Shown one piece after another: positions 27-60,591 of a stretch of 64,000 nt of DNA (position 1 is the stretch's first letter; every line of letters begins with the position of its first letter). Where the stretch lies: the NCBI GenBank assembly GCA_964483625.1, contig CAZABB010000003.1, forward strand, positions 21,895-85,894. Reading direction: 5' to 3'. This DNA is from an uncultured Planctomycetia bacterium (lineage in GTDB: Bacteria; Omnitrophota; Gorgyraeia; Duberdicusellales; 4484-171). Below the pieces are notes generated by a model. That model did no database searches and was not told the origin of the DNA. It was given only the letters and a program-made list of their open reading frames with translations. Made by a program: the position numbers and the translations under genes.

Positions 27-176
27 TTGGCGATAATAGGATTTATACTGGTGTTTTTTATTTCGGGGGGGATGATCTTTTTCTCAGGCCAAACCGGTAG
101 TCCTTACTTTTCTCTCCAGGGGATGGCGGGAGTATCTCTGGTGTGCTTTCTCGGTATGGTGGCTATATCTTCTCCG
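27..176 (+). other. N-terminal hydrophobic region of two predicted TM helices. Possible membrane anchor or signal anchor
   Basis: Translation reads AIIGFILVFFISGGMIFF ... GVSLVCFLGMVAISS. Confidence 0.5.
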
Positions 177-15100: not shown

Positions 15101-18100
15101 TTCCGAACCGTTCATCGCTACCGCGGCTTTTGAACGCGTCCTGGAGATTTCCGCGGACAGTATCGGGGGAAGCCGCAGGTGGGAGTCCGAGGTGAATGTC
15201 CGCGAATTAATACAGGTGGCACGGACATTTCTGATACCATCGTTGGTTTCGCTGATAGACCATGAAGATGAACTCGTACGGTTAGCTTCCTATGACCAGT
15301 TGGTCCATCTCGCTGAAGACAAATATCTGTGGGAATGCGCCGATGAATCCTTATCCTTGTCTTCCGCCGGCTTAATGCGGGAAGCCGGCCGGGCTTTAGA
15401 GGATGTCCGTTCTCCTCTCCCGGCGTCTGGCGACGGGGCTTCGACCGTATTCATGCCCGATTGCCGGATAGGCATTACGGTTGAGGCCGTGGCCCGTACG
15501 GGGAAAGATTTTCGGATTGTAGGAATGGATTTTGGTGTCGAAGTTGCCTGTGAAGCATGGCAGAGGAACGTGATATTCGAGCGGGTGACAATTATGGTAT
15601 GGAATAAATGGCGTCCCGGTTTTACGCCGGAATCAGTTGCCGCCGTTATTTGTTTGAATCCCTTCCTGGGGCTTAAGTCGCTTCCTCTTTTGCATCCAAA
15701 GGGATTAGTAAAATTTTCTTATTCTCCCGACTATCTTGAAGAAGAAAAAAGACAGATGGAAGAACGTTGGATTGATACTATTCTTATTCCGGGCGGGAAA
15801 ATCATAATGGCTGTCGCCGATATTACCGAACAGAATGAATACGCTCAGATATTCTTTGAGCGGTATCTATGGGCCCGGGGGATCTGGGAACGGGTTACCG
15901 GATGGGAAGGGGTTCTTGCCCTGCTTCCCGGGATCTCTTCGGAGGATAAGAAAATGTTCATGTTTACCAAGCACGCTGAAGAAGATCCGTTCATACTTCT
16001 GCCCTGGCCTCTGCGGACGATGAAAGAAGGAGATCGGTTGCCTCACCTTAATTATTTTGCCCATGCGCTCAAAGAGGCATTTCGGGAAAAAATGGCCGAT
16101 GTCATCGAACGTTACCAGGGACGAAGAGCCCGATCCGGATTGAAGCCGGTTCGGAACATCATGGTGCTTATTGGCCGTCTCTCCGGTACCGATGGGGTTT
16201 CTCTGGAAACCATGAAAATAATTCGCCGGTTAAAGGCTATGGGACACAATGTAGCGGTGTATACCGGTAAGATCGATGACGTGAAACGGAGAGAGTTGGC
16301 TGAGTTAGAGGTTCCCGTACGCCTCAACAAAACGGCGCGGTTTCGACGCCAGACACTGGAGGGTTGGGGGATCCTTGAAGGGGGCGTTGCCGCCGACTGG
16401 CTTTCCTGGACGCACCCGACCAGCCTTGAAGATGAAGATAAATACCAATGGATGGCCGATACGCTTATTGACGATGTAAAAGAACTGATTGAAGATATCG
16501 TTGAGTTTGTAGATGAGCATGATATCGATGTCGTACTCGGACAGAACCTTTCACTTCCCTGGTCATATCACCTTTCTCTGGCGGTTATCGTTCTCTATGA
16601 AATTTTCGGGATACATTTTATCGGTCATGACCACGACTTTGCCGGTCAGCGCGACTATTGGGGGAAGATAGCCGAAATACTGAGAGAGGTCTTTCGTGAA
16701 CTGTGTCCGCCTCACATCCCCACGGCGATTCACCAGGTCATCAATACCGCGTCTATCCGGGCCGTTCAGTCTTCGGCCCTTTTCGGCCGGGTCGTCCTTT
16801 TGCCCAATGTGTGGTATTTTGATACCCCGCAGGAAGAACTTCCTCCCGAGTTGCGTTCCCGTACCCCCGAAGAACTGCGGGAACTGCGTAAGGTGCTGCG
16901 TTTAGAAGAACACCATGTTCCGTTTCTGGTACCCGTTCGTCTGGTGGAACGTAAAGACGTGATCAGTAAACTGTTAATCGCCTATCGTTTGAAACGAATC
17001 TGGCATGAGGAGGGAAGAGAGTTAACGCCGGTTCTGATTGTCACCCATGATGTAGCCGATGAAGGGGAGGCGTATTTTCGGAGGATCCGGCGTATAGCCG
17101 ACGCGTTACATCTGGAGATGCGTTTTGTCCATGATGAATTAGACAGGTATGAGGGATCGGTGCGTTTTACCGAATGGGATGCCTATAAACTTCCCGATGT
17201 CATCGGTTTTTATCTTTCCACCTGCGAAGGGTTCGGGAATGCTCTGCTGGAGATGATTTTCTTCTTCTGTCCGTTTATCATTCATCCCTACCCGGTATTT
17301 GAAGACGATATCAAACCGAAAGGAATCCGAGCTCTTGAAGAATATGTGCCCGCGGACCGAGGGGAGCTCAACCGGCTTATTGAAGAAATGGAGGTAACGG
17401 CGGCAACCCGGGATTCCGCCGTCGTCGGTGCGGCTCGGGCTGTTTCCCGTGAGGTCCTGCATTTCCGCAGTACCTGCATACCGGGTAGGTGGGACGGCCG
17501 CTGGACGGAGGAGACAGAAACCATGCTTAAGAGGAATTATGAAATTTGCCGGCAGTATTATGCCATGGGTACGTTAAAAGATATCCTGGAGGGCACATTG
17601 CATATGGTCGATAAAGTCGCTGTTATTGAGTGGGTTTACCATCGTCTGCGGGAAAAATTAAGAATGATTTCGCTGGAACATTCTATCCCGCCCTTTTTTA
17701 CCGCTGAGACCTGGGAGAAGGTGATTATGAGGTATATTGGTGAGAAGTTCGAAGAGGTCCTCATTGAGCTTGACCGGGAAGTAAGATCGTTCATGGTAAA
17801 CGGAGGCAATATCGGCAGTGAGATTGTGCGGCGGCAGTTACGGAATGATTTTATGCGTTACCTTGGCATTATTATTCCCGCTCTCTCTCAGTCGCAGAAC
17901 TCCATCTTTTCCTTAGGGCGTCTTTTCCTGCCGCGTGAGGAAGACGGATATGGATTGGATGTATTACTGCGGCAGTATTTTCATTCCCAATGGGGCGTTA
18001 CCGTGGAGTTTTATCCCGAAAATGAACCGGCTGTTTCTCCACAAATACAGCCTTCCTATCTGCTTCGAGCTATCGAGTCCCGTTACGCTCATGGCCGGCC

Positions 18101-21100
18101 GCTCTGGTGGGTTCGCGCCCTGTTGAGCCCGGTGGTCGTACCGCATGAGGCGGGTAATCTTATCCAGGCGCGGGTGACGGGCAGGTGGGATGATATCGAT
18201 TGGGACAGTTCCAGTATATTCGCCGGTATTACATATCAAGGGCGAGCGCCGCCGTGCGCGGGGGGGATTATTGGGAATATCATTTGTGCCGTTGTTTTTT
18301 TAATATCATCCTTTTATTTCCCTGGCTTGCTTGTTCTGGCGGTTGCTCATCTGATTCATATTGGATTTGAACTCCGGAGATACCGGCAATATAGTCGGGA
18401 AGAGGTTGTAGCCGAACCGGAGGCATTGATGTCTCCGGCTTGCCGTTTTGACGGATATAGGCGTCTGACCGCCGCCAGTCAGTACGATGCGGCCCGACGT
18501 TTTCAGGATGAAAAGATAGCCGCTGAGGGATTCAACCATCTCGGCGACATATTATCGCGTATCGGCCATTATATTTTTTATACGGGACATTATCAGGGGC
18601 CGGATCTCGCGGAGGAGTGTATTGATGAACTGGTCATTGCGGCGAATGACCCTCAGACGATGTTTCGTTCTATTCAGACGCATAGCCGCGAAACCGCCCG
18701 GAAATGGTTCCTCTGGCATCTTGAAAACCTGCCGGGATTGCGGCTGTCCGCCGCAGATATCCATATGGTCATGCAACATATTGAGACCTATGTGGAAGCT
18801 TCTACGCAGGAAGCCGCGTTCGCCGCTCAGAGAGATTTGTTCCGAAAGGGAATAAAACCGTCAATCGACTATTCGTTCCTGCCGTACGCGGTCGTTTCTT
18901 TCGATTGGAGTGCTCTCCAGATTTTATTTATAAGAGTAGAAGGATTTCGTGAATTTGTGCGTTATCTTATCACACGTGACGATGTTATTGTTCTGATAAA
19001 TACGCGCGGCGGCAATCACGAAAAGATCGCCGAAGAGATGACGGCACGGTTATGTGGTTTTCGCGAAAGCCTGTATTATCAGGGGACGCTTCCCTGGCTC
19101 GATCTTGAAGTGGATATGGAATTTTCCCGGGAACAGGTGGTATCCGCCCCTCAGGGGATCATGAATAAGTTCGATGCGCTTGAAAATTGGCTGAGCCGGC
19201 GCTATATAGCTCCCCGATATATTATCCATGTCGACGATAAGACCGTTGAGTTTCTGGCGTTTCGTAATAACATCAGTCATCTCAGAAGCATGATGACTTC
19301 GTTTATCCCGATAGATATGGATCCGGATCCTTCGCTCCAGACCGATGATGCCACGGTCGAGATAAAAGCCCGTGAGGCGTTTGCCCGTTTAAAATCTCTT
19401 CTTGCTTTTTCTCCCGGCGATCCCGCGCGCAGTTCCCGGGAATTGAACGAAGAGGAGGTTGAAGAACTCAGCCGGATCCGCGATACCCACTGTGTTACGA
19501 TTGATGTGTCAGAGACAGTCCCTCTCTACACAGAAGAAAAAGAAAAAACCGCATTTCTTCTGCACCGGCATGGGTACCATGCTGTCGCCGAGGTCTTAGA
19601 AGGTTCGATTGTCATTCAGGCTCCGCCGCGGCTGCGCCGGGCAGTAGAAAAATTTCAGTCACGTCATCGCGATCCTGCCGTAACCGTCCACGCGCTGAAC
19701 GCTGCTGTTCGGAAACAAAACCTTATCATCATTCTGGATGAGGAGCATATCGAACGTTCCCTTATTCATGAAGCCGGCGCTCTTGCCGGCTATGCCGATA
19801 CCTATAACTACCGGCTGGAGAATATTACTGAATCGACGGAAGAAGAGGTTCTTTTCCATTCAAAAATATCCCCGTTTGTCGAACCGCGTGTTCCTTGCGT
19901 AGAGGTAACCTTCGATTTTTCCGATATCCCCGCCGCCCTCGATACTGTCGCGGCCGGCGTCCGCGCCCGGACCGGGTATACCGTGGGGGCCCGCTTTGAG
20001 GTGAGAATCGACGGATTTGAGCCTGACGAATACATCCAGTTTAACCGGGGAGGGGAGCCGAAGATACTTTTCCTCGCTCCGGCGGGAGAACGAGTGATCC
20101 ATCACCGGATTAAAAATCCTCACACGTTCACTTCCGAAAAAGAATATCTGGCTGATTTACAACAGCGTCTGATTTCTTCCGGAATGAGTCCGGACGGATT
20201 GAACGTAAGGATGAGCTGTGACGGAACGCCGTATCAGATTACGGTCGCGATGAGCAGCCCGATCCGGGAGAAAGAGATCGAGAGGATACGCCGGATATGT
20301 GCCTTCCCGTCATATCGTATGCGGGCAATGATGAAAGCTGTCTGGGAAGAAATGGAGCGGGGCCTGCGCGGATTAGCGAGTTCTTTGCGAATGCTGCCTT
20401 CCTACACGGATATCCCCCGCGGAGAAAAAGGTCTTTATCTTGCGCTTGATCTGGGCGGCACCAATTTCCGGGTATTAATGGTTCACCTTCGCGGCCAGGG
20501 TGAGAAGCCGGTTGTAATCAGTAAAAAATATAAGCTTGATGAGAAGTATATCCGGGGAACCGGCCGGGATCTTTTCGATGCGCTTGCCGGATATATCAAG
20601 GAATTTTTGCGGGAACACGGTTATGAAGATGAATATGTCGTAGGATTTACCTTTTCTTTCCCCGTCGACCAGAAAGCGATAGACAAAGGGGTTCTTATTG
20701 AGTGGACTAAAGGATGGGATGCGGCAGGGGTGGAAGGAGAAGACGTCGTCCGGTTGCTGAATGAGGCGCTGGAACGGGTAGGTGTGAACAATGTAAAAGT
20801 AGTCTCGCTGGATAACGATACCGTAGGAACTCTTGTCGCCCGGGCTTACCTTGATTCCGAATGTGATATTTCCGCGATTCTGGGTACGGGAACGAATGTG
20901 AGCTATCGGGAGATGGCCGCCAATATTATAAAGTCCATCGGTCCGTACGCCGGCACGCATATGATTATCAACATGGAATCGGGTAATTTCAATAAAGCTT
21001 TGCCCGGTACCGAATATGATTTGCTCCTTGACGCGCTGTCGGCGAATCCGGGCGCTCAACGCCAGGAAAAAATGGTCTCAGGGAAATATCTGGGAGAGCT

Positions 21101-24100
21101 CACCCGTCTTATTCTGATCGATTTGATCGAGAAGGGAGTACTTTTAAAGGGAGACGTTCCTCATCTTTTGCGGAAAGGAGATAGTTTCGATAGTATCCAT
21201 ATGGCTACGATCGAGGGGGATACGTCGCGTGCGTTCTGGCGTACGCGCTGGCTCCTGCGGCGCTGGTATATCGTTCCCTGTTCGTGGGAGGACGCCCGGG
21301 CCGTTCAGGAAATCTGCCGTTGCGTTTCCACCCGGGCGGCTCAGGTTGCCGCGACATTACTTGCGGCGACGGTAGTAAAAACAGATCCCGATCTTGCCCG
21401 GCATCATACGATTGCCGTTGACGGAAGTATATTCGAAAAGTACCCCCGTTTTGCCGAGAAAATGGAAGAGACATTTGCGATACTGTTCGGCGAAAAGTCT
21501 TCCCTGATTACCATGAAACTTACCCATGACGGGTCCGGTATCGGCGCGGCGGTTATCGCGGCGATCGCGGTACGGATGGCTCAAAAATCGTCTTCGAGGG
21601 TATCGGCAGATTCAACGCCGTATCAAGCGGTACCGGGATTCTTCCTGGGAATATTCAGTGCCAATAGCTTTTTTATTGAAAGAGGGGACATCTCTTTCTC
21701 GTCTTCCGTATTTTTATATATTCCGGTTTTTCTGACGCTGACCGGTATGCTGATTGTGCTTTATCTGCTCTTGCGGTCCCTGTTGCCTCCCTTTTCTCCC
21801 GTTCCGGTCTCTTCTCCCCGCAGACCATCCCGTTCGAGCCGTGACGAAGGAGAAAAAGAAGGTTTCGTATCAAATATCACACAGCGGTGGTATGTGGTGG
21901 GCATCGGGATGCTCATTGTCATATTACTCCTGGCGATAGCACTGAAAAGCGGAGCGGTAAGTGTGTTCTGTTTTGCTATTCTTGGTTCAGTATTGACTGA
22001 CGGCGATAAGGTGGGACAACGGAAAAACGGGTATACCCTGATTGAAGAGGATATAGAAAAGATCGTCGAAGCCGCACTACATGTTCTGGAGAACACCGGA
22101 GTTAAAGCTGATGAAGGGTCTTTGCGAGAATGCTGGCGTCAGCTTGGCGCTCGGATAGATGAAGAAGAGAGCCGCGTGTTGATATCCCGTGATCTGGTTG
22201 AGTACGCTCTCGGGGAAGCAGCCTCTCAGGTGCGGTTATACGGAAGGATTCCTGATCCTGATGACGGTCGTAATCATGATGTGGTCGTGGGAGATGGAGA
22301 GGTGTATCACGGAACAGGAGGCAAATGCGGAAAGGTGATGGATACCACGGGAGAAGTGCGTGAAAGTAGATTAGCCGATTTATTCCATATCGGACGGGTC
22401 GTAGAGACCTGTGAACATCTTAAGTTCTACATCTCCCCGGTCAGCGCCCGGGATATCCCTTCCAAAATCGAAGCGGTGAACAGGTTCTATGTCTGTCTGG
22501 CGGCGACTCATAAACACGTGATGACCAATTGCGAATCGCTCGTTTTAGAGGATGAACCCGCCGGGATAGAGGGAAAAGACGGCACCGCTTTGGCTGTCGA
22601 AAACGTACGTGAAGTGATCGAGCTTGCCGCGATGATCGCGGGAGATAAAAAATCATTGCGGGAACGTCCGATCATTTCCTTTATTGTTACCGGGATTATC
22701 AGCCCCCTGTCGTTCGATTCGTCGGGGATGAAAATATTGGACGAGATACTCGACCAGGGAATTCCCGTGATGCTTTCTTCGGCCCCGCAGACAGGGACGA
22801 CCGGTCCGGCGGCGCTTGCCGGTACGCTGGTTCAGGTCTATGCCGAACAGCTTGCCCTTCTTACCTATATAAACCTCAAAAAATCGGGGTATCCGGTGCT
22901 TCTGGGAGGAATGCCTTCGGTAGCCGATCTGCGTACGGGAAGCTTTTCCGGCGGGGCGCCGGAATTTGCGATGATGAACGCCGCGGCGGTACAGATCGCC
23001 GGTTATCTGAAGCTTCCGATCTGTGTCTCGGGAGGGATGCCGGACACAAAAGTCCTCGATTGTCAGGACGGATATGAGGAGACCTTGCGGATGTGGACCG
23101 CATTTTCCAACGGTTGCGCCCTCCGGCATGCCGGACTGATAGAGGGTGGGCTTACGGCTTCATATTCCCAGTATCTGCTTGATGATGAAATGATTGGCCT
23201 CCTTGTCCGGATAAGACGGGGAATTCAGGTAAACGATGATACGCTTGCCGTCGGAGTTATCGATGACGTGGCAAGAAGTTCCGGTCATTATCTAGGACAG
23301 GAACATACCTTACAACACATGCGTGATGGTGAATTCGTGTACCCGCGATTGATGGACCGCAACGCGCGTGAGATTTGGGAACAGTCGGGAGGGCTCACGA
23401 TGGCCGAGAGAGCCGCGCGGGAGGCGGATAAGATTCTTGCTGAAGAAGGAGGAATCGTTATCGATAGTGAAACGGACGAACGTATACGCGAGCGATTTGA
23501 TATACGCCTGCCGCGAAATATCGGAAAGCCTCTTGGAGACCGGCCGGTGTATATTTATATCGAACCATCGCGGGAAATGGAAGAGTGTCCGGAAAGGGTA
23601 GAAGATACCGTGAAGGTTGTAGAGCAGATATCCGGAGGGAGAATAGAAGTGTTTTCTTACGGCGATATTACCATAGAAGAGGTTAAGGAACTTAATCCTA
23701 CCGCTCTTATTCTGGGAGGTTTCTATCACAGCTGGGAGGATATTTCAGTGTCTTCGCTGTATAACATTCTTAAAGTCATCCATTGGGTAAGTATTCCTAT
23801 CCTGGGGATCTGCGGCGGACATCAGCTTTTGGGTTTCGCCTTCGGTCGGTTCTTGGGTGGAGAAGTCTTTGTCGATCAGTCGATCGTAGACGAAGGGACT
23901 GTCGTGGAAGGTTTTTATCCCATTACTCACGCAGAAAATAACCCTCTTTTTACCGGTGTTCCCCAGCAGGCCTGTGTGTGGTGTCATCATTCCTGTGAGA
24001 TAAAAGTAAAACAACTATCTCCGATGTTTACCGTGACTGCCGGGAGTGGGCATTGTGCCATCGAGGCGATCCAGCATCTGTATCTTCCGGTGTTTGGGGT

Positions 24101-27100
24101 GCAATTTCATCCCGAAAGGTTTAATCGGGAACATTCCTATGGGAAGAAGGTATTAGAGAACTTCTTTTTTCTGGCGGAGAGGTATCGCAATATCAATGCT
24201 GGTCTTCAGGTCGGCTACCGTCAGGGGGGGCGTATTTTTGTGAAGCTGTTCACAATGCGCACCTATGCCTTTTTATTGCGGCGATGGCGTAGAATAAAAA
24301 CCTGCATACATATCGTCCGTCCTCGTATCGTCGATACAATACATAAAATAACGCAGGGATATTCACAGTGTTCTCAGAAACTTAAAGATGTTTTAGGGAA
24401 GCGCTTCCGGGTGTTCAAGAGATATGTAGCCCTTTCCGGCAAACGTACGGATTTGTCCCAGAGGGATGATTGGAATCGTTTGTATCAGGGATTGGCATTA
24501 TTGGGATTGTTAAATATAGATTCTGATACCGGACGTCCGGTATTGGTGCAGGAGTTGAGAAAACAAGGCACATCGATCCAGGATGTTCATATTCTCCTTT
24601 ATGTCACGATTATGTACGGATTGATCAGAGGAAACGTGACTGCCAGTGATGGAGAAGGGAACTTTGTCATGCAGAGTGCTCTAAGCCGGCATCCGGCGAT
24701 CGCCGAAAGATTACTCGTCTACATTCATGCCCGGTTTCATTATATTGCCGAGGGAGACAACGAATATGTTTCTCAGAAGAGGAGAGATATCGAAACAGTG
24801 ATTGAGGAAACCGCGGGAGGCGATATCGTGTTGTTTCAGAACTATCTTGTCATGTGTGATGCTCTGGTGACATCAAATGCGCTTTCCTGGCGGTACAATT
24901 CACGGGATCCTCCGGTGCTGGTTTTTGACGGCCGGATATTGCCTCTGCCCGACCACAGCCCGGATATCTATCGGGTGATAATGATTCCCGACCGTACCGG
25001 AAGCATTTCTCTGGTGATTAAGACCGATGAGGTTTCTGCCGGAGGTATCCGTGTGAAGTTCCTGGATGGCGGTACTACGTGTTTGAACGATATCTTTGAA
25101 GAAGACAGCGGTCTGGCTATGGGAATGGCGTTTAAGGATGTCTGGGCTTCTTTGGTGAGCAATCCCATCCCTTATTTGGGATCAAAGACTCTCACCGTGT
25201 TGGCTCCTGATGCCGATATCGATAATGTACTTATCCGTATGGGACGGTCTCTCGTCAATGTAATCGGCGATGACGGCGTTTGGCCCAAGAACATTGCCGG
25301 TCCGGACATGAATTCCGCCGGGCATATTCAGGGGTTGGTCGATGCCGTACGGGATGAATACCGGCGGCACGCCGAATATGAATGCGCTCTGCTTCTTGGC
25401 GAATCGGGAGGAGCAGAACACCTAGTTGAACGTGCGTCTTTGGGAGAAGAATCTCCGCGGAAGAAGCTGATGTTGTACGATTTCGATGATCCCGCCCTGA
25501 AGAAATATCATGACGTGTTAGCCGGAGTCGAACAAAAACGGGGAAAGTATTTTCTGCGTGATCCGTTTATCTGGGCGATGCGCGAAGAGATTCTGGCAGG
25601 AATACGCCGGAATCAGATACGGCTCTCCAGCGGCTGGCAGGGATTGATGTGGTACATCGGGAATGTTCTCCGGCGGCTGGCTTCCGGCGACCCTACGCGT
25701 TTCGGTATACGTCTGCGGTTAGATCGAGACACCGAACGGACGCTCAACAAAATTATTGGTGTGGCGGTAGGAGGAGGGGCACGTCTCGAAGGTTCATTAG
25801 TTGCCGATGCCGATCTTGCCAATATTACCGCGTTAGGATGTGCCTATGAGCTTGTTCATGTGGTGCGGTATATGGTTGCCTCCGGAAAGGTAGAGCCCGG
25901 TGAAACTCTGAAACTTGCCGTTACCGGTACCGGTCAGGTCGGCGGCGCGATGGTTTCTCTCATTGAGGAAATAAACGGACAGTTGACCGGTACGGCCGAA
26001 ATCGCCGTTGTTGCGATCGCCGAGAAAGGATCCGAACAGTCCGGTGTTATCTATAATCCCGGCGGGTTTACTTTCGAGCAGCGTGAAATTTTACGACGTG
26101 CGCGGGAGGGAAGAAACGATGCGGTGCGAAACGGATATACCGTCGAAGCGATGCGGGGGATACTCCCGGCAGAACAGATTATCGAGGTTCCGTCCGAAGC
26201 GGATCCCCGTGATGCGCTTCTTAATGCTGAAGTGGAAGCCGATATCCTTTTTGCTGCGGCTGCCGGTCCTACGGTAACGGCGGAGAATATCGAGGCTTAT
26301 GCCGCGAAATTTCCTCTGGCAATCATCGCCGGAGAAAACAACTGTTTTGGTACCAACGCGTTCTCCCGGGCGGAGATTGAGGATGCGTTGCATCGGGAAG
26401 GTGTCCTTGCGCTGGAAGGAGATATCGGGAATTTCGGTACGGTATATATTGTGTGTGCTATGGAAGGATTTCTTAAACATAGATATTCCGTGCCGGAGCT
26501 GCGAAAAATATGGAGAGAGATCAAAGAACAGGCTCGATGTGATGTGGTTGAAAAAGAAGCGGGATTGATTCCTTTTATGCTCCACGTCAGTGCCGCCCGC
26601 GATATACCTGCCGGAGAGTTCCAGCGTACGATCGTCAGCGAAATGAAAGACGAAATCGTCCGCCTGATTGCGTCGTATGAGCAGGGTGAAAAGGAAGTAA
26701 CCGCGAAAGTTGATACGTTGATTCGTGACCGATTACGTGTGCCGCAGCATTCGGTCCCGCCTTCTTATATGCCTTTTGCGGTCGCCCGGATCTGGGCGGT
26801 GATGCAGGTTGCGCGAAAAGAAGTTTTTACCCGGTACCAGAGAGAGATATCCGACGAGAATATACAACTGCCCCGGCAGCTAAGCTGTGAAGAAGTCTCT
26901 CCTCCGGCGCGGGACGGCAAAGAAAAGCTTCTCGTCCAAAGAATTGTCCGGGCGAAGCAGAAACTTCTTTGTGTGTGGCGAAGAATAAAGAGCCTGTTGG
27001 TGTATGGGAAGAATAAAGGGGTGGGTATCATTACCCGGTTGAAATACGGCAGTGTGCTTATGGTTTTGCGGATAGTACGATATGGTACTGCGCGTCGTCT

Positions 27101-30100
27101 TGCTCAGCGGACCAGAAACGTCGTTCATATGGGGGCAGGCGTGCTGCCGCCGGAAAACCGGTACGCGCCGCTTTCCCGAAAAGAAATCCGAAAAATTGTT
27201 GCGGCTTCTTTAGAAATACTCGAAACCGTGGGGATGGAGGTCCCCGGAGATTCTCTGGGGATCTGGGAAAAAGCGGGTGCGAGAATCGATATCGATCGTA
27301 ATCGTGTCTACCTGCCGGTATCTCTTGTATTATCGGCGCTTACTTCTGCGCCCTCGCGGGTGGTTCTGTATTCACGGACAGCTGAAAATGAGGGGGTAAT
27401 TGTTGATGAGAATCATACGTCTTTCGGGAGCGGCGGCCAAGCGGTAAAAGTGGTGAAAGAAGAAGGGGGGGTACGGGAAAGTACCCTGGAGGATATTTTC
27501 CATATCGGCCGGATTGTCGACGAGCTTGAACAGATTCATTTCTATCTGCGGCCGGTAGAGGCGCAGGATGTTCCCGAAGCCGAACGTGATTTGAATGCCT
27601 ATTACGCCTGCTTAGCCGCGACGCAGAAACATGTGATGGGAGCTTGTTCTTCGGCGGAGAGCGTAAGACAGGTGGTGGAATTGGCTTCTTATATTGCCGG
27701 GGACAAGGAAGTGTTACGTGAGCGTCCCTTTATTTCGTTCACTACTTGTTGTGTCGAACACCCGCTTAAATTCAATCCCTATGTACTGGACATACTAAGG
27801 GAAATTATTGCCGCAGAACTCCCGGTCGTACTTTCTGCCGCACCCCAGCCGGGGGTGACCGCTCCCATCACATTGGCGGCGACTCTGGCTCAGGTGTATG
27901 CGGAGTTGTTCGGATCTCTTACGTATGTACATCTGCTTCGTCCCGGCCATCCGGCGTTGATTGGCGCGACCTTATTTACCAGCGATATCAGGAGCATGGG
28001 AACATGTGCCGGGTCAATTGAAGCCGCGGTATTGAACGCCGGTGCCGTGCAAATCGCCAATTATTTGAAATTACCGCTTTACACTACGGCGGGGGTTACT
28101 GAAAGTAAGCTTCCCGATGATGCTCAGGCGGCAATGGAATCGGAATCGACGCGGACGCTGGTAAGTCTCGCGGGAGGAAGTTTGGTCCATCATGCGGCCG
28201 GTATGCTTGAGACATTGCTTACCGTAGCCCCCATAAAGTATGTGCTTGATAACGAAGGAATTGCACGCATAGTACGTCTGACGCGGGGGGTTAGTGTTAA
28301 CGATGAAACACTGGCGTTGCCGGTGATCGCCGAAGCCGCCGAAGCCGGCGATACATTTGTCTTTATGGCCGGAGACCACACTCAGTCTTATATGCGCACC
28401 GAGCTTGATCTGCCCGGCCCGGCTATTGATCGAAATGCTCGTGAACAATGGAGTGCCGCGGGAGGATCAAGTGCGGGACAACGGGCGGACGAATGCCTTC
28501 AGGGAATGGAGCTTCAACCAGAGGGAACGTATATACCTGATGAGGTCGATCGCTTATTACGCGAGCGATTCGATATCCGGCTGCCGCGAAATCCTGTGTC
28601 CCCTGTTTCTGAAGCTGCAGAGGCAGCAGATCATTATATTACCTCTGCCGCGATGTATGCGGCGGCGGGAGAATATCCGCGGTATGCCCGGCAGTTCAAC
28701 CAGACGGGGGATATGCTCAATGTGCTTGAGGAATATCTGATTGAATCCGGCAAAGTGACCGGACCGCCGTGCGTCGCCGAACGTAAAGATGGCAGGGTTA
28801 TCTGGCATCTGAATGTATTTCAAATTATCAATATATTACGCCGTCAGTATCGTCTTATTTCTATCCTTTCTCTGCTTATTCAGATTTTTATCCATGAATC
28901 CCGGCCGAATGAAGAAAAAGCCATCCGTGCCCAGATACAATATTACACGTTCCTTGCCCGCCTCTCTACCCTTCCGCCACTCCGGGAGTGGAGGTCGGGT
29001 GTGGTGAGAAGCCGGCCGGATCGGTTCGACTTGGCGCCTTCTCCGGTCGGTAACGTTGAAGTACATCCGACCAACCGCTGTAACCTGCTGTGCCAAGGGT
29101 GCACGTATATCGCGTGCGATCGCCGGGAGACGTTGTCTTTCGGCGCTTTAGATTCTCTGGCGCAATTGTATCCGTCAGCAATACTTATCGTCGGGGGAGG
29201 AGAACCGACCTTATACCGGGACGGGGATAAGAGATTCAATGAGTTCGTACTGCGTGTCAGAGAACTTCTTCCCGATGCGCATATCAGCCTTACAACGAAC
29301 GGGATTTTTATTCCGCCCGGTACATGGCAGGATCATGTCGGTTTTATAGGTATATCTTTGCACGGAAGTTCTCAGAGAGAGTATGAGGATTTTACCCGTA
29401 CAAAGAAAAAGGATTGTTTCGAAACGGTATGGCGGAATATTTTTGAACGGTATCTGCGGGACAGTCCGATTCCCACCGTGGTCGTGTCGTACGTCTACTC
29501 GCGGGATAATTATGAGAATATCCTGCCGTTGACGAGAAAGTTGTGGCAGGCCTGGGAGGAAGTGGAAGCTCAGCTGCGGGTCCGGGGAAGAGAAAAAGAA
29601 TTTCGTTTTGTCTTGCAGCCTTACGCCGATGATACGCTTCCCGCCGATCCCTATGCATATGCCAATCTTACCGGCCCCCAGAAAGAAGCGTACCGCAGGA
29701 GGCTGGAATCCATAGAGAAGGACGAACCTCTCTTCTGGGAATTCATCAAAAAGCACGCTTCACATGTGCGCACATATCCGTTGAAGGAACATAAAGCTCC
29801 CGGAGTGAATTCCTGCTGGATGGTCGCCGATTATGTATTGTTGGGCGCCGACGGCATTTTTTATCCCTGTTGTGTTATGGCCGCGGCGGCGCGCGCGTGT
29901 AATCTCGGCCCCGTGGAAGATGGCATTGATATGCTCCGGGAAGAACGCCAGCGTCTCATGGAATCCGTTCCTCCGCGCTGCCGGCAGGGATGCCGTCTTG
30001 TCGGTACGTATATGGGGAAAAAGGTGCGTGCCCATTTACGGAAATATTCAGAAGAACAAAGTCCGGGTAGCATGTATAATCTGGGGGTAACGGGATTGTT

Positions 30101-33100
30101 ATTAGGTTTGAGCGTAACGAATCTTGGTATGCCGCCGGCCGGCGTTATTGTTCCCGGCAGCGGCGCCCCTTCATCCGCCGGCTATGTAATCCCTCTGGTT
30201 GCGTTTCTCCTTGTGGCCGGTCTCATTGCGCTGGACTTTCTGATCTTTGAATATGAAAAGATACGGTCATTTATCCGCACGGTTACGGTGAGGGTGAAAA
30301 GGAATATCGTCGTCGGGACGGGGATTGTATTACTTATCTTCATGTTCGGGATTACCGGATGTACAGGGGACTCCGGACGTACCGATCCCGTTCCTTCACC
30401 GTCTTCGCCGGCCGTTGTCGGGGTGTCAAAGACGAAGGAGTTGAATGCGATGTTTCTCGTCGTCGACCAGGAAAGTGCTTACGCGATGCATCGGGTCGTG
30501 GGAGGGAATTGTGAAGACGACTGGGTTTCTACCTGGCTTACGTTTCAATGGGAGGTATTTCAGCGTTCGATACGGGAACAGTACGGTGTGGCACTTATTC
30601 TGCGCGATGTTGCCTGGCCTCCCTGTAAAAAAGTCAACGTTACCCTGGCTCAATTCCCCGGCGGCGTTCATATCGGCGGTGATATCCCGGAAGTGCGGGA
30701 AGTTATTGCCCGGGAACATCTGCCGGTTGATACGGTTATTCTTACCGTCGAGGATCTTGAGTGTCCCTACGGTTTAAATGCCACAGAGATTCAGCGCTGC
30801 TCCATGAGAGAGAACGGCAGGGAGATTGAGGTGAATCAATGGTGGCAAGAGGAACTGATCGAGCAGGGCGTTCTGGAAGAGATATCCGGTGAATCTTCAC
30901 TCATACCTTTACAGGATGATACTCCGCCGGTACTGCGCTCCTCTGTTCTTTCCGGATATCCGTTATTTGTTGAGAACACGCAGTGGCTTTTCGGGTGTTC
31001 TCTTCTCAATGTGTTTATTGGTTTGTCCCTCCGTATCCGTTCTTTTTTTAGAAATAAAATCCCCGGGCAAGTACTCTCCACCTTGGGGGAGGCCTCTTCC
31101 GTGACTGTAGGCGCCCTCCTTGCCCGGGATGTATTTAAAAAGTATCATTGCTCCGCCGCCGCGTTTTTGCTGTTTTTCCATTCTTTCCAAAGTATGGCAG
31201 GAGACGGCAGACAGGCGATCGGTCTGGCGCTCATTGGCTTTATGTGTCTGATCGGATTGTGGATTACCGTGGAGACGGTTTTGTTCGCCCGGAAATGGAT
31301 CTATACGATTAATCCGCAACAGATGCTGGAGAAACAGTTCATCGGAAAAGTTTCTCTGCGTGATTTTATCCGGTATGCCGCGCCGGTAGTGCTGATAGAC
31401 GTGATGAGTAAACTATCCGTCGTTTTTCTCACCGATATCCCCCGGACGGCCGGCGATACGGTGACCGCATCAACACCCCATATTGCCCTGGGAGAGTCTC
31501 TCTGGTGTGCCAATTTCCGTTTAGACGCGGAAAACTGGATGGGGATATCTGTAGGAAACATTCCCTGGGTTATCTTCGCGGGATTTTTTGCGCTGGCGTT
31601 GGGGTATCTTCTTATGATGTTCCGTTTCCATCGTTCCCGGAAGTTGAGGAACGTCTCCGAAGTCGGTTTGATAGTTATTTCTTTTCTGCGTATGCTTCTG
31701 TTTGTCATGGCCGGAACAGGTATTGCCACAGCCATCTCCCTTCAATGGACGATCCTTCCGACCGACTGGATCGTCTTTAATACGCTCGATGGCCCCATTC
31801 CTACTAATTTCGCTGATATAATCGGATTGTTCACCGTGGCGGTATGGCTTCTGATGTGGATAACTCTTATGACCATGGAGTCGATGGATCGAACGCGGTC
31901 AGGTGAGGGAGGAATATGCCGTCTCGTAAGCGGATGTCCCGTTTGTTCACCGCAAGAGGATTTCCCGCCGGGATTTTTTTACGATGAAATATCCTGGGAC
32001 GAAGAAGGTCAGGTTGAGGTTGATAACGTACTGTGTGATTTATCCCGGCGTCAGGCGGAAGAAGGGTTTGGTTTTCCTCATTACTGGGATCAATTGCTGA
32101 CCGTAGGTGAGATGTGCGAGGGAACAACGGACGTGAGTTTGAGAGAGCGGTATCGTCAGGCATTACGGGAAGAGGCCGAAGATGCCAGGATGGTCGAAGT
32201 AAAAGATCTGGATATGTTTAAAGTCATCAAAATACTCTGGCGTCCTCTGCGTCGTTTCGGGTTTCCCGGGACCAGACGGAACGGGCAGGCGGTCAACGAG
32301 GGATGTTTTATCTGTATCCCCAATATGTCCTCGTTACAGAGGGGAGTAAGAGTGGAAGGGGGATTGCCCGTGCCGCTTCGTCAGCCGGATGCGCCGTCAG
32401 GGCCGATTGCATCGGCACATCAAACCGTTTTGTTTCGCAAAGATGGTTTGATGTTAAGTCAGCTCGATAGGCCGTGGCCCAACGTTGTCTATGTTGCTCA
32501 AGGGGATATTCGGGATATCGCACGGTTTATCATGTTCATGAGAGAAGGTTTACGAAATAAGTTTCCCGCTGAGAGTCAAAGGAGAGGGTTTAACATTCTC
32601 TTTACCCGTGATCAGAACAGGGAGGTAAAAGTATTCTTCATCCCCCGGCGGAAATTAAAGCCGTCGGGATTCGGAAATGAGTTCGCCGCGTTTGAGATGT
32701 GCGGAATCATTGTACTGCATCGTACCGGGGATTTTATCCAAATGCAGGAAGAACATATTTATAACGCATTGGCGGAATGCGGGTATCCTCAGGATGAAGA
32801 CGGCCGCATGCGCGAGGTGTTTGATGATGCGGTAGCCGCTTTATCCGAAAGAGAGAGCGATGAAGAGGATTCCTGCGACACTGATTTTGCCGCTCTCTGC
32901 AATCCTTTTGCCATCGTGCCCCATCATATCACACTGGCTTCTTTATCCCACATTCCGCAGGAGCTCACGTTTTCTTGTCTTCTGTTTATTCTTCATCTTA
33001 CCGGGCATTGCCGCGATTTCCGTTTCTGTTTTAATTCTATCGACGGCGGAGCTTCGATCGAGAAACATCTGCATTTTCAGGGGACAGACCTGCCGTTTCC

Positions 33101-54515: not shown

Positions 54516-54683
54516 AACGCCGGACCGCGTTAGGATTCTGGGAAGAAATACACCCGGCCCTGGCTCAGATCATCATCGACAAAGTGAGGCGGAAGATCAA
54601 TCGTTCGCTTTCCTGAGGTATCCGGCTGGATCGCGTATTGCCCGCCATTGCCCGATAGCGGTGGTAATTTTACTCTTTCCAGT

Positions 54684-54703
54684 TTGTCTCGTTATGATAT
54701 AAT
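54684..54703 (+). promoter_or_regulatory. Candidate sigma70-type promoter for hisI (extended -10 TGATATAAT), followed by an SD
   Basis: tgatataat at 54695-54703 with a poorly spaced TTGTCT upstream. SD AAAGGAGG at about 54718-54725 and ATG at 54736. Confidence 0.3.
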
Positions 54704-59721: not shown

Positions 59722-60591
59722 ATGGAATTATATGATTTAATTGAAAAAGGGAAAGTAAAGCGATACTTGAGTGCGAAAAACAAAGTAGTCTATCCAGGAG
59801 GCGTCTATCATATTACCCATCGGGCTCCTGGCCGGGAAGTCCTTTTTTTAGAGGATACGGATTATCTGCGTATGTTAGCATTATTAAAAAAAACGGCGCA
59901 AAAATTTCAATGGGATATTTTTGCTTTTGTCCTTATGAAAAATCATTTTCATGTTTTATTAAGAATAAAGGAAGCAAATCTTTCCCAAGGGATGAAGAAA
60001 CTATGTGAATCCTACGCGATGTCTTTCAATGCAAAATATGAAAGGAAGGGGAGCGTTTTTTCTCGTCCCTATCGTGCGGCGTTATGTGTTGATGATGTCT
60101 ATTTGCTCGCCATATCGTTATATATCCATCTTAATCCATTGAAGGCGAGGATTTGTGAATCGCTTGATGAGTATCGCTGGAGTTCTTTGGATCTTTATAA
60201 ACGAGATAAGAAAAAATCTTTTGTAAATGCTGATTCCGTATTAAATGTTTTATCCAATGATCGGACACTATCAACGAAGAAATATAAAAATTTACTTCAA
60301 CAGATGACCCAGTTAGAATTTAAAAACATTATCGAAAGGCCACGTTTTATTGAATTTTTCTGTGAAAAAACAAGGGGTTATTTACGTAAAAATAGTAATT
60401 TGAACGATAGAGTAGAGGAAGAGTTATTAAAATTTAAGGATAAAAAGAGATTACGAGAACCGAAGGAAATTCAAGCGCGGAAATATTTAATTGAACAGTT
60501 ACTGGCGAGAGGATATTCAGTTTTAGATATTGCTCGGCGATTAAATCTTACTCGTAAGGCAGTGTATGATATTATTAACTATACAAAATAG
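59722..60591 (+). CDS. REP-associated tyrosine transposase (IS200/IS605 TnpA-like HUH Y1 nuclease) with a C-terminal helix-turn-helix extension
   Basis: VYHITHRAPGREVLFLEDTDYLRMLALL...WDIFAFVLMKNHFHVLLRI is the HuH motif. ...GSVFSRPYRAALCVDDVYLLAISLYIHLNPLKA carries the catalytic Tyr region. The C-terminus is YLIEQLLARGYSVLDIARRLNLTRKAVYDII, an HTH. Confidence 0.75.
   Translation: MELYDLIEKGKVKRYLSAKNKVVYPGGVYHITHRAPGREVLFLEDTDYLRMLALLKKTAQKFQWDIFAFVLMKNHFHVLLRIKEANLSQGMKKLCESYAMSFNAKYERKGSVFSRPYRAALCVDDVYLLAISLYIHLNPLKARICESLDEYRWSSLDLYKRDKKKSFVNADSVLNVLSNDRTLSTKKYKNLLQQMTQLEFKNIIERPRFIEFFCEKTRGYLRKNSNLNDRVEEELLKFKDKKRLREPKEIQARKYLIEQLLARGYSVLDIARRLNLTRKAVYDIINYTK

Follow-up and report, generated by a model that had tools for sequence, protein, structure and literature searches.

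The stretch of DNA analysed here (the window, 64 kb) carries on its forward strand a giant open reading frame (ORF) of 18,162 codons. Upstream of base 27 its frame remains open, without a stop, back to window base 3; the gene may therefore begin beyond the left edge. The flagged region corresponds to a membrane-free block of the giant ORF (about aa 7307-10054), the longest such block in the ORF, which contains in order a first MttB-type methyltransferase domain, a class-I glutamine amidotransferase (GATase), about 320 residues without a family, a glutamate dehydrogenase (GDH)-like region, a second MttB domain and a radical-SAM/SPASM domain. The features are listed below.

27..54515, + strand: giant ORF, 18,162 aa, containing all the parts below (from the ORF list)
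20277..21566, + strand: hexokinase domain (Hexokinase_1 and Hexokinase_2, E 6e-58 and 1e-63), aa 6751-7180
21714..21944, + strand: transmembrane (TM) pair opening the block, aa 7230-7248 and 7288-7306 (Kyte-Doolittle peaks 2.25 and 2.74)
21987..23540, + strand: MttB copy 1, aa 7321-7838 (BLASTP limits; PF06253)
23487..23519, + strand: RERFDIRLPRN, 33 nt, C-terminal end of copy 1
23673..24194, + strand: class-I GATase domain, aa 7883-8056 (PF00117, E 1.5e-23; Peptidase_C26, E 1.3e-10)
24225..25196, + strand: about 320 aa without recognisable family, aa 8067-8390 (no Pfam or NCBIfam match)
25209..26447, + strand: Glu/Leu/Phe/Val-dehydrogenase-like region, very divergent (PF00208 on the Rossmann part)
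27117..28613, + strand: MttB copy 2, aa 9031-9529 (BLASTP limits; PF06253)
28560..28592, + strand: RERFDIRLPRN, 33 nt, C-terminal end of copy 2
29064..29945, + strand: radical-SAM core, aa 9680-9833 (PF04055, E 2.3e-9), and SPASM-like tail, aa 9930-9973
30189..30362, + strand: TM pair closing the block, aa 10055-10073 and 10094-10112 (Kyte-Doolittle peaks 2.64 and 2.38)

The original prediction had placed the MttB domains at 22030-23530 and 27160-28600, close to the BLASTP limits, and had correctly listed the MttB pair, the GATase and the dehydrogenase, while missing the radical-SAM/SPASM domain of the same block and the hexokinase block before it. A TM pair divides the latter from the MttB block that follows, and the closest homologs of the hexokinase are free-standing bacterial hexokinases of 450 aa (55% identity). 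A reading of these parts as separate genes or as a small fusion did not hold, as the MttB, GATase and dehydrogenase domains all belong to one block of the 18,162-aa ORF.

No stop occurs in the frame of the giant ORF, compared with 837-895 in the other two forward frames. The GC content at third codon positions is 0.53 in the giant ORF and flanking genes alike, and the synonymous codon fractions are uniform along the ORF and approximate those of the flanking housekeeping genes. The flanking genes are about 60-70% identical to those of Omnitrophota metagenome-assembled genomes (58-70% for SecDF), with the gene order hisI-trpE-rpsP-yajC-secDF-mfd-surA maintained. Within the ORF, soluble enzyme domains alternate with clusters of hydrophobic helices, often pairs, all TM calls resting on a crude Kyte-Doolittle hydropathy scan. 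Profile searches returned guanylate kinase, six-hairpin glycoside hydrolase (GH), NUDIX, hexokinase, radical SAM, HAD, SAM methyltransferase and Helicase_C domains, and a PP-loop motif is also present.

Giant ORFs exceeding 20 kb have been described in Omnitrophota (Seymour et al. 2023, PMC10066038), as have the "Archaeovorin-type" proteins (West-Roberts et al. 2023, bioRxiv 10.1101/2023.11.21.568195) and a "multi-enzyme metabolic" class (bioRxiv 10.64898/2026.06.07.730766). The ORF reported here belongs to this known type of "enzymes on a membrane string", and it constitutes a single gene, predicted to encode one polypeptide. It shares with those giants the Omnitrophota genome, a single ORF of tens of kb, soluble blocks set apart by many TM helices, an N-terminal part in which no domain is recognised, poor conservation between genomes and a mixture of divergent enzymes (GH, GT, NUDIX, SAM methyltransferases, radical SAM, HAD, hexokinase, a helicase domain). 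However, its 18,162 aa in the window fall short of the 30,000 aa that West-Roberts et al. set as threshold, although the start may be off the window; moreover, no peptidase domain was found, and the helicase signature consisted of Helicase_C only, with no SecA_DEAD. None of the three studies mentions an MttB/trimethylamine-methyltransferase domain, and no orthologous giant gene with the MttB block was found in any sequence collection searched. The locus represents a rare case of the MttB family built into a larger protein, here as two domains of a giant gene.

Membership of both copies in the MttB superfamily was confirmed by profile searches, and for copy 2 also by predicted fold. PF06253 (MTTB) matched the segment containing both copies with a summed E of 2.1e-166 and copy 2 alone with 7.5e-84, while copy 1 matched NCBIfam TIGR02369 (E 5e-102, below the equivalog cut-off). 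Among PDB sequences, the copies matched MtgB and MttB with E values of 1e-54 to 1e-43. The AlphaFold2 model of copy 2, built on alignment A2, had a pLDDT of 93.7 and superposed in Foldseek on 2QNE, 7XCL and 9YCE with TM scores of 0.84-0.91 and rmsd of 2.1-2.4 Å. Of 67 superfamily-conserved columns, copy 1 keeps 58 and copy 2 keeps 52, the latter being the family minimum; both retain the residues invariant in alignment A2 (R, D, K, P, E and several G), and both lie on long branches. At the Pyl334 position copy 1 has Met and copy 2 has Val, in agreement with the expected absence of pyrrolysine. Both domains fall into the branch of the superfamily that lacks pyrrolysine.

A close characterised counterpart in this branch is MtgB, the glycine betaine:corrinoid methyltransferase of Desulfitobacterium hafniense (PDB 2QNE, 9YCE; PMC13080624), with which the copies share superfamily and fold (E 1e-50 to 1e-54; TM 0.84-0.91) and, as with other non-pyrrolysine members, the C-terminal dimerization region and a hydrophobic amino acid in place of Pyl334. 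Unlike MtgB, a stand-alone protein of about 480 aa, the domain occurs twice within a giant membrane protein with no MtgC or MtgA nearby, and the betaine-binding residues are changed. The equivalents of MtgB Y97/R312/H348/F356 are G/C/R/G in copy 1 by pairwise alignment (in a 76-sequence alignment the H348 position falls in a gap and the neighbouring His is displaced) and G/Y/H/L in copy 2. At the betaine site, the Arg common to all characterised betaine-type members (PMC13080624) is replaced by Cys in copy 1 and Tyr in copy 2. Since these residues are not conserved, the substrates originally proposed, glycine betaine, proline betaine and carnitine, are unlikely as such, and the sequence suggests that the substrate is probably something other than glycine betaine or another carboxylate betaine. 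The pocket signature of the nearest free-standing clade (G/Y/L/H/M or L) is kept in copy 2 (G/Y/V/H/L), while 3 of the 5 clade-conserved pocket residues are gone from copy 1.

As for the neighbouring domains, the GATase triad is intact, as had been noted, with the Cys in GICGGHQ (aa 7927-7933, nt 23805-23825) and the His and Glu in HPE (aa 8028-8030); its NCBIfam matches are TrpG/GuaA-like, all below equivalog cut-offs. The following segment, aa 8067-8390, has no family in Pfam or NCBIfam, the sole trace being GDH_HM3 (E 0.22). Pfam supported the predicted ELFV-type Rossmann domain through PF00208, which matched aa 8606-8807 (nt 25842-26447) with 32 bits and E 1.3e-7, above its gathering score of 23.4; GTGQVGG at aa 8634 provides an intact NAD(P) GxGxxG motif. 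Residues 8395-8600 resemble the N-terminal substrate domain by eye only, with no Pfam signal. A low-confidence model of the GDH-like domain retrieved glutamate dehydrogenases as top Foldseek hits (E 5e-5, TM 0.2-0.29), and no match was obtained against PDB sequences. The radical-SAM domain has an intact CX3CX2C motif at aa 9685, matches NCBIfam radical-SAM maturase families (E 2e-8 to 1e-3) and is followed by a weak SPASM-like Cys-rich tail (E 0.12).

The full-length colinear paralogy of the two MttB domains was borne out by BLASTP, which returned one alignment with 211 identities out of 524 (40%; range 40-42%), E 6e-119 and 6% gaps, a resemblance well above what chance would give, copy 1 having a 19-aa insertion relative to copy 2. 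The pair is the only internal paralogy that BLASTP detected in the giant protein. The previously quoted peptides LADLFHIGRVVETCEHLKFYISPV and LEDIFHIGRIVDELEQIHFYLRPV sit at nt 22371-22442 and 27486-27557, respectively. The peptide RERFDIRLPRN occurs in both copies, with exactly 3 of 33 nt differing as reported, at coordinates that had been misplaced by 10 nt and 2 nt, and the ORF reads on after it with no stop. It is a conserved C-terminal motif of the family, shared by free-standing homologs such as P0001, which ends in IRAEFDIRLPRE. Its near-identity at the nucleotide level is not the mark of a recent duplication: identity between the copies at codon positions 1, 2 and 3 is 0.56, 0.63 and 0.33, and third positions only 33% identical indicate an old duplication.

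The nearest relatives of the MttB domains are uncharacterised free-standing enzymes of about 500 aa from other phyla, with 43-48% identity; the few with a named source derive from Anaerolineales or Chloroflexota (P0002, P0010). The group P0001-P0037 shares with the giant-gene copies the C-terminal motif R.EFDIRLP and, with copy 2, the pocket signature, and GATase genes often lie near its members, as a GATase domain lies between the copies here. In contrast to the latter, these are single-domain proteins of about 510 aa on much shorter branches. The genes of P0001 and P0002 stand in operons directly after those for a B12-binding corrinoid protein and its reductive activator, RACo, which suggests a canonical ancestry for the MttB pair; other relatives adjoin genes for sarcosine oxidase or a regulator resembling GbdR. 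A search of the giant ORF and of all six frames of the 64 kb turned up neither a corrinoid-binding domain nor an activator of the RACo type nor a methyltransferase for the second step, which extends the earlier observation that no corrinoid partner is visible.

Solved family members are tight dimers in which the corrinoid protein docks via the C-terminal loop of the partner subunit (PMC9842639; PMC13080624). The MttB-MttC complex of Methanosarcina barkeri (PDB 7XCN; PMC9842639) provides a structural model for the need of two MttB protomers to hold one corrinoid protein. M. barkeri MttB likewise folds as a TIM barrel extended at both termini; however, it contains pyrrolysine, its free subunits assemble into a hexamer (trimer of dimers) and it has a corrinoid protein of its own, whereas here two diverged copies lie in one predicted chain with no Pyl and no MttC. 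We propose the following reading of origin and mechanism, giving it an even chance. An ordinary MttB-family gene would have been captured once into the giant gene, possibly together with its GATase neighbour, and duplicated there long ago, purifying selection having presumably kept both copies since, as the conserved columns retained and the lower identity at third codon positions suggest. The two copies would provide both protomers in cis as an intramolecular pseudo-dimer, tethered at the cytoplasmic face of the membrane, which would demethylate a methylated amine and hand the methyl group to a Co(I) corrinoid supplied in trans, either by a protein encoded elsewhere or as a free cobamide. The equivalents of the dimerization loop are 39% identical between the copies, about as conserved as the barrel (45%), while the roughly 1,190 residues between the copies, the missing corrinoid partner, activator and second-step methyltransferase in the window and the long branches of both copies count against this reading.

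As regards the origin of the block, the copies might represent independent captures of two different free-standing genes, with no internal duplication. The raw identities point this way, copy 1 being nearer to free-standing proteins (48% to P0001/P0002) than to copy 2 (40-42%), and copy 2 having a different top match in the representative search (P0075, 43%); in addition, the domains of the giant generally resemble captured ordinary genes, such as the hexokinase. We consider this improbable, since the copies were sisters in 162 of 200 neighbour-joining bootstraps (81%) and copy 1 grouped with the P0001-5 clade alone in 2 of 200, although the sister grouping could reflect long-branch attraction. 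Moreover, both copies carry the exact RERFDIRLPRN where relatives have RAEFDIRLPRE and similar, and its nucleotide identity exceeds the expectation from codon usage. That the giant ORF is an artefact, namely an assembly chimera or several genes with stops lost to sequencing errors, is barely credible. The exact flanking SecDF and relatives of the giant block are both absent from the collections searched, and the best homologs of the domains are ordinary single genes; nevertheless, 18,162 codons are open against 837 and 895 stops in the other forward frames, composition matches that of the neighbouring genes throughout, and the domains are joined by linkers and TM pairs rather than intergenic spacers.

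With respect to function, the MttB domains may have ceased to be enzymes, perhaps along with the GATase and the GDH-like region, and serve as folded spacers, ligand-binding modules or docking surfaces. This would agree with the missing corrinoid partner and activator, the long branches, the family-minimum conservation of copy 2, the pocket losses of copy 1, a GDH-like domain too divergent for a PDB sequence match, with an N-terminal part invisible to Pfam, and the high divergence of giant-protein domains in the literature. We regard it as somewhat unlikely, since the GATase triad and the radical-SAM and NAD(P) motifs are all intact, copy 2 retains the clade pocket signature, both copies keep the invariant residues and the predicted fold of copy 2 is confident and native-like. 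The published proposal that Omnitrophota giant proteins form surface coats or attack machinery raises the alternative of a block displayed outside the cell, acting in predation on prey-derived compounds or prey corrinoid proteins. Published work predicts the domains of such giants to be mostly extracellular and ties the proteins to predation, and no corrinoid partner is encoded nearby; furthermore, Arg residues abound in the loop inside the upstream TM pair, and the positive-inside rule would then argue for an orientation opposite to the cytoplasmic placement, with the flanking blocks outside. However, topology predictors disagree on these proteins, many such predictions are called unreliable by their own authors, and 46% of long Omnitrophota proteins are read as membrane-anchored with cytoplasmic domains (bioRxiv 10.64898/2026.06.07.730766). 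The radical-SAM domain of the same block depends on SAM and a reductant as well as on an oxygen-sensitive [4Fe-4S] cluster, the adjacent hexokinase is ATP-dependent, and the guanylate kinase, NUDIX, PP-loop and SAM methyltransferase elements elsewhere in the ORF need cytoplasmic cofactors. These requirements suggest the cytoplasmic side and render an extracellular location very unlikely.

Within the proposed membrane-tethered pseudo-dimer, copy 2, with its ancestral pocket, would be the likelier catalytic half, and copy 1 may act as a partner with a structural role or another specificity. The nitrogen of this substrate stream may be processed by the GATase and the GDH-like domain, a suggestion whose sole basis is the recurrent gene neighbourhood. 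The original idea of a fused amine/one-carbon unit gains some support in its GATase-MttB link, as class-I GATase genes occur about 0-5 kb from free-standing MttB relatives in 5 of the 11 loci examined.

The region 22030-28600, for which the original prediction had proposed two MttB-like methyltransferase domains flanking a glutamine amidotransferase (GATase) and a dehydrogenase-like domain, falls wholly within a single forward frame in the ORF listing, at window 27-54515. The four domains were present as described, but their setting had been missed, as they are part of one ORF of 18,162 codons of the Omnitrophota giant type. The frame is open back to window base 3 with no upstream stop, so the start of the giant gene may lie off the window; the ORF measures 54.5 kb and at least 18,162 codons. 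No stop occurs in this frame vs 837 and 895 in the other two forward frames, the GC content by codon position is even along the ORF, with a GC3 of 0.53 identical to that of the downstream housekeeping genes, and the synonymous codon fractions are nearly equal to those of the same genes. The giant ORF is thus a genuine, long-resident coding sequence, being neither a run of genes nor a recent import.

A hydropathy scan, which allows only crude estimates, returned some 70 hydrophobic peaks grouped into 32 clusters. The soluble blocks alternate with clusters of strongly hydrophobic segments, each 19 residues long, which often come in pairs. Some 20 kinds of enzyme-type domain were found in the ORF.

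Domains of the giant ORF (forward strand) and genes downstream of it
guanylate kinase
HD domain, weak
six-hairpin glycosidase-like domain, two copies
NUDIX domain
GT4, weak hint
window 20277-21566 (+), aa 6751-7180: hexokinase
~aa 7307-10054 (+): MttB block
DUF4922
window ~33170-34690 (+), aa ~11050-11556: EamA transporter
HAD, weak hint
class-I SAM methyltransferase
uridine-kinase-like P-loop
window ~44600-48300 (+), aa ~14864-16090: xanthine-dehydrogenase-like Fer2/FAD/MoCo set
PEMT
aa 16493 (+): PP-loop motif (SGGKDS)
Helicase_C
downstream, in order: hisI, trpE, rpsP, yajC, fused secDF, IS200-like transposase, mfd, surA-like

The NUDIX, SAM methyltransferase, radical SAM and Helicase_C matches were above the Pfam threshold. 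The six-hairpin glycosidase-like domains were sub-threshold Pfam matches, the best being Bac_rhamnosid6H with 24.3 bits vs a gathering score of 24.5, and HAD (Hydrolase_3, 17.8 bits vs 20.9) and GT4 are weak hints. Neither a peptidase nor SecA_DEAD was detected in the giant ORF by Pfam.

Several other features of the ORF were recorded. Past two N-terminal hydrophobic segments, the first 1,266 aa of the open frame (window 3-54515, +) showed no family match. A pattern of three segments of about 150 aa (EALQ.A.S.R.DA..I.A......W......F..I) was noticed by eye at window ~200-1700 (+), aa ~60-560; a self-comparison of the region by BLASTP failed to find this three-fold repeat, which is retained as an impression only. 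The hexokinase is a full two-domain Hexokinase_1 and Hexokinase_2 protein of the eukaryote/bacterial type (E about 1e-58 and 1e-63), whose closest relatives are free-standing bacterial proteins of 450 aa with 55% identity and not giant proteins, the named ones belonging to Aminicenantes or Acidobacteriota. The EamA-type transporter, with two EamA matches, is built in between enzyme blocks and surrounded by a cluster of about 11 hydrophobic segments. The xanthine-dehydrogenase/CO-dehydrogenase-like set occupies one soluble block (FAD_binding_5 E 2e-24, Fer2_3 and MoCoBD_2 weak) and is followed by the PEMT-like membrane methyltransferase and then by the PP-loop motif.

The SecDF protein encoded downstream showed 66-70% identity to MAGs labelled 'uncultured Planctomycetia bacterium' (its top matches), 69% to 'Candidatus Omnitrophica bacterium 4484_171' and 58-63% to many 'Candidatus Omnitrophota' MAGs, and the seven-gene order hisI-trpE-rpsP-yajC-secDF-mfd-surA is kept in related MAGs. 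Sequence identity and gene order together indicate that the window derives from an Omnitrophota genome. Most Omnitrophota lineages have ORFs above 20 kb, which are poorly conserved and contain few annotated domains (Seymour et al., PMC10066038). Archaeovorin-type proteins carry glycosyl transferases, methyltransferases, glycosyl hydrolases, SAM enzymes and NUDIX domains, with many transmembrane (TM) helices and N-terminal regions devoid of domains (West-Roberts et al. 2023, bioRxiv 10.1101/2023.11.21.568195), and the 'multi-enzyme metabolic' class of Omnitrophota giants includes hexokinase-rich examples (2026 preprint, bioRxiv 10.64898/2026.06.07.730766). The architecture found here, a single ORF exceeding 20 kb with numerous TM helices in an Omnitrophota genome, is the one described for these giant ORFs, although within the window it falls short of the 30,000 aa that West-Roberts et al. 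set as a threshold. As a giant ORF, it is then a further member of an already described kind. MttB or trimethylamine methyltransferase is unmentioned in the published descriptions of Omnitrophota giant proteins (PMC10066038 and the 2023 and 2026 preprints), and the supplement of the 2026 preprint makes no mention of PF06253.

The section containing the MttB domains is the longest TM-free stretch of the ORF. Its length comes to 2,630-2,750 aa, according to the hydropathy threshold chosen, and a TM pair flanks it on either side (aa 7230-7306 and aa 10055-10112).

Order of domains in the MttB block (forward strand)
aa 7321-7838, nt 21987-23540: MttB-1 (copy 1)
aa 7883-8056: GATase
about 320 aa without a family
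aa 8606-8807: Rossmann domain of the glutamate dehydrogenase (GDH)-like region
aa 9031-9529, nt 27117-28613: MttB-2 (copy 2)
aa 9680-9833: radical-SAM core

The predicted membership of the two outer domains in the MttB superfamily was borne out by Pfam, which located two MTTB domains (PF06253) near aa 7335-7835 and aa 9020-9513, both above the gathering score of 25; copy 2 alone scored 282 bits (E 7.5e-84) and a chunk holding both copies 554 bits in two stretches. Among PDB sequences, both copies matched MtgB (2QNE, 9YCE), MttB (7XCL) and 4YYC with E values from 1e-54 to 1e-33. A model of copy 2, built from a 76-sequence alignment (pLDDT 93.7, pTM 0.92), was superimposed by Foldseek on 2QNE, 7XCL, 9YCE and 4YYC with TM scores of 0.84-0.91 and rmsd of 2.1-2.4 A. 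Copy 2 is thus predicted to adopt the TIM-barrel fold with an N-terminal subdomain and a C-terminal dimerization extension, as in 2QNE and 7XCL; the model covers this copy only, with which copy 1 is colinear and 42% identical.

The position of Pyl334 is occupied by Met in copy 1, Val in copy 2 and Leu in MtgB, and the ORF has no in-frame stop, in agreement with the anticipated lack of pyrrolysine. The trimethylamine methyltransferase model TIGR02369 scored 342 and 311 bits for the two copies vs an equivalog cut-off of 525, and identity with MttB sensu stricto was rejected on both grounds. In MtgB, glycine betaine is bound by Y97, R312, H348 and F356 (PMC13080624). Pairwise alignments to MtgB returned G/C/R/G at the equivalent positions in copy 1 and G/Y/H/L in copy 2, and the family alignment agreed, except that the H348 position of copy 1 is a gap with the adjacent His shifted. 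Since the betaine-binding residues are not kept in either copy, identity with the glycine betaine methyltransferase MtgB was discarded, and glycine betaine is an unlikely substrate. All characterised members keep R312, and the substrates of these enzymes are acidic quaternary amines (PMC13080624); an Arg of this type is absent from both copies and from their whole nearest clade, which argues for a different substrate class. At five pocket positions the nearest clade carries G/Y/L/H/M or L, copy 2 G/Y/V/H/L, and copy 1 G/C/M/(gap, adjacent His shifted)/G.

The domains lying between and after the two copies were then considered. The GATase domain (PF00117 E 1.5e-23) retains the Cys-His-Glu triad in the predicted GICGGHQ and HPE motifs and qualifies as a class-I glutamine amidotransferase, and no NCBIfam equivalog cut-off was reached. 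The ELFV-dehydrogenase-like Rossmann domain also proved real, PF00208 (ELFV_dehydrog) scoring 32 bits vs a gathering score of 23.4, with GTGQVGG at aa 8634. The N-terminal catalytic/dimerisation domain PF02812 was not detected in the GDH-like region at E<=1, and motifs resembling KGG.R, FK.A, G.K and PD were seen upstream by eye only. A phmmer comparison of the region with PDB sequences gave no match even at E<=10, and a scan of a collection of genome contigs found no relative. Its single-sequence AlphaFold2 model was poor (pLDDT 44); the best Foldseek matches were glutamate dehydrogenases (E 5e-5, TM 0.2-0.29), a ranking that agrees with Pfam and is only a hint. The radical-SAM core (PF04055 E 2.3e-9) carries the CX3CX2C motif as CNLLCQGC at aa 9685, which identifies it as a radical SAM domain, and is trailed by a weak SPASM-like tail.

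The two MttB copies gave a single colinear BLASTP alignment with 211 of 524 residues identical (40%, E 6e-119), so that they are indeed paralogs, and the pair is the only internal paralogy within the 18,162 aa at E<=1e-4 in a self-BLASTP. The peptides quoted in the original prediction and the shared RERFDIRLPRN were all present, and the 33-nt stretches encoding the latter do differ at three positions, their correct coordinates being 23487-23519 and 28560-28592, 10 and 2 nt away from those first assigned. This near-identity is not isolated but part of the full-length paralogy. RERFDIRLPRN is the version found here of a motif that the clade conserves at the C-terminus, e.g., IRAEFDIRLPRE, and for this reason gives no evidence of recency. 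Dating at the nucleotide level led to the same result, as identity between the copies at codon positions 1, 2 and 3 was 0.56, 0.63 and 0.33 and synonymous sites are saturated. Saturation together with a conserved protein indicates that the copies diverged long ago and that purifying selection has since acted on each of them. A recent duplication or gene conversion, read from the 33-nt match, was therefore mostly rejected, given the family motif beneath it and the saturated overall synonymous divergence. For an identical peptide under the codon usage of the ORF 8.5 differences are expected, and the probability of three or fewer in 33 nt is 0.005, a test chosen post hoc; a short gene-conversion tract or a nucleotide-level constraint possibly accounts for this small residual excess of identity.

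We evaluated conservation over the 67 columns showing at least 85% conservation across 85 free-standing homologs, which themselves keep 52-67 of them (median 65); copy 1 keeps 58 and copy 2 keeps 52. In neighbour-joining trees the copies were sisters on long branches beside the clade of the free-standing homolog P0001 in 162 of 200 bootstraps, and copy 1 joined that clade alone in 2 of 200. Long-branch attraction could have produced the sister grouping.

Relatives were sought in 5.8 billion clustered proteins and by an exhaustive scan of 1.84 billion representatives. The nearest ones are free-standing: the full-length top matches measure about 480-540 aa, and the 150 best matches of the exhaustive scan, none of them a giant protein, range in length from 259 to 570 aa. 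Copy 1 is 48% identical to P0001 and to P0002, the latter from an Anaerolineales MAG, and copy 2 is 43% identical to P0075, a third such homolog. A metagenome scan with the two-copy alignment recovered only free-standing MttB genes with 39-46% identity. Queried as a whole, the 2,748-aa block gave no match among the 8,000 word-sharing candidates compared, a set probably made up of unrelated proteins. Nor did the C-terminus of the giant match anything in the related loci around SecDF, which end shortly before the expected place of a giant gene. The genes of P0001 and P0002 come directly after those of a RACo-type activator and a B12-binding protein, and other free-standing relatives adjoin sarcosine-oxidase subunits (loci L092 and L094), DUF1638 (L094) and a GbdR-like DJ-1/AraC regulator (L093). 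These neighbours indicate that the ancestry of the copies is a canonical corrinoid methyltransferase tied to methylated-amine catabolism.

The predicted lack of a visible corrinoid partner held in every frame of the window. Neither PF02310 nor PF02607 was found in the giant ORF by Pfam, a corrinoid-protein profile (from L001 and L092) and a RACo phmmer search gave only noise on the six-frame translations, the B12 motif DxHxxG...SxL...GG occurred in no frame, and DUF1638 and the other neighbours of free-standing homologs were not found inside the giant ORF. Within the window, the MttB copies thus lack the cognate B12-binding protein, usually joined by an activator, that is encoded alongside three-component corrinoid methyltransferases. 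As to the GATase, of the 11 loci examined, five (L001, L082, L083, L086 and L093) have a class-I GATase gene about 0-5 kb from the free-standing MttB gene, and they represent three kinds of arrangement and not five independent events. At L086 alone, a partial GATase of the subtype of the giant (GVQFHP..REH..G..LENFF) ends just upstream of MttB. The recurrent neighbourhood suggests a shared pathway of GATase and MttB, itself not defined by the neighbourhood. The GATase beside the free-standing homolog P0006 is not detectably related to that of the giant, which ruled out en-bloc capture from a P0006-type cluster.

A C-terminal loop, residues 396-452 in MttB, keeps MttB and MtgB together as tight dimers (PMC9842639; PMC13080624). 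In the MttB-MttC complex it is chiefly the loop of the partner subunit that grips the corrinoid protein, so that the functional unit is the dimer (PMC9842639). As a domain fixed in a huge membrane-anchored chain could not easily meet a second copy, the cis duplication plausibly provides the second protomer, which would generate an intramolecular pseudo-dimer. The loop equivalents, at about aa 7731-7791 and aa 9420-9482, are 39% identical between the copies vs 45% for the barrel and appear as conserved as the latter. The asymmetry of the pockets suggests that copy 2 might be the ancestral-type catalytic site and copy 1 a partner whose specificity has changed or been lost; the corrinoid would have to come in trans. 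The block would lie on the cytoplasmic side of the membrane because it contains a radical-SAM domain and only a two-helix TM pair separates it from the ATP-dependent hexokinase, a placement qualified by the crude TM scan, by the Arg-rich loop in the upstream hairpin and by the conflicting topology predictions published for giant proteins (West-Roberts et al. 2023).

The main alternative is that the domains of the block are no longer catalytic, as the absence of a corrinoid partner from the window, the long branches of both copies and the altered pocket of copy 1 would suggest; however, the GATase and radical-SAM catalytic motifs are intact and the pocket of copy 2 is conserved. Other explanations appear weaker. 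The two copies might have been captured independently, a reading opposed by their sister grouping, which itself could stem from long-branch attraction. The block might be displayed extracellularly, but the radical-SAM domain and the nearby hexokinase favour the opposite side. Finally, the giant ORF might be an assembly or sequencing artefact, an explanation that its stop-free frame and even composition argue against. Returning to the pseudo-dimer, its broadest form is a speculation to which we assign a low probability: giant Omnitrophota proteins would be working membrane-tethered metabolons carrying an obligate dimer on a single chain by cis duplication, and the MttB pseudo-dimer would demethylate a non-carboxylate methylated amine, perhaps from prey, with a corrinoid carrier not encoded by the giant and possibly derived from corrinoid-rich prey such as methanogens, and with the GATase and GDH-like domains recovering nitrogen.

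The block is an unusual case within the MttB superfamily, being embedded in a much larger polypeptide, twice per chain and with no neighbouring corrinoid partner. For the MttB field it is a rare instance of the fold built into a larger protein, the best 150 of 1.84 billion representatives being single-domain-sized. Moreover, the Arg that characterised betaine-type members have in common is missing from the clade of the two copies, and its absence suggests a class of substrates as yet uncharted. Published papers close on the question of the roles of Omnitrophota giant proteins and the activity of their divergent enzyme domains, and the MttB block offers a concrete, assayable handle on whether such domains work: MttB-family domains can be followed by a simple spectrophotometric assay of cob(I)alamin methylation, and solved structures, known specificity residues and close free-standing relatives as controls exist for this family. 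Should the duplication of an obligate dimer in cis be confirmed, it would illustrate how a single-chain giant can accommodate an oligomeric enzyme.

Some minor features were observed downstream of the giant ORF. A terminator-like hairpin occurs at 54644-54665 (+), about 130 nt past the ORF stop, and a promoter-like site with 10 of 12 matches and an extended -10 TG at 54676-54703 (+), just before hisI; their counts are no higher than in shuffled sequence, but their position would suit a separate transcription unit. Neither an Rfam nor a tRNA scan gave any match in the window. The IS200-like Y1 transposase gene at 59722-60591 (+) (PF01797 E 1e-11, C-terminal HTH) has a GC3 of 0.30 vs about 0.53 in its neighbours and lies between secDF and mfd, direct neighbours in every related Omnitrophota locus examined. 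The transposase gene thus resembles foreign DNA inserted recently. The Mfd homolog at 60624-62516 (+) is only 630 aa long, and its counterparts in related Omnitrophota loci align with it over the full length, about 623-631 aa. A short Mfd therefore appears normal for the lineage.
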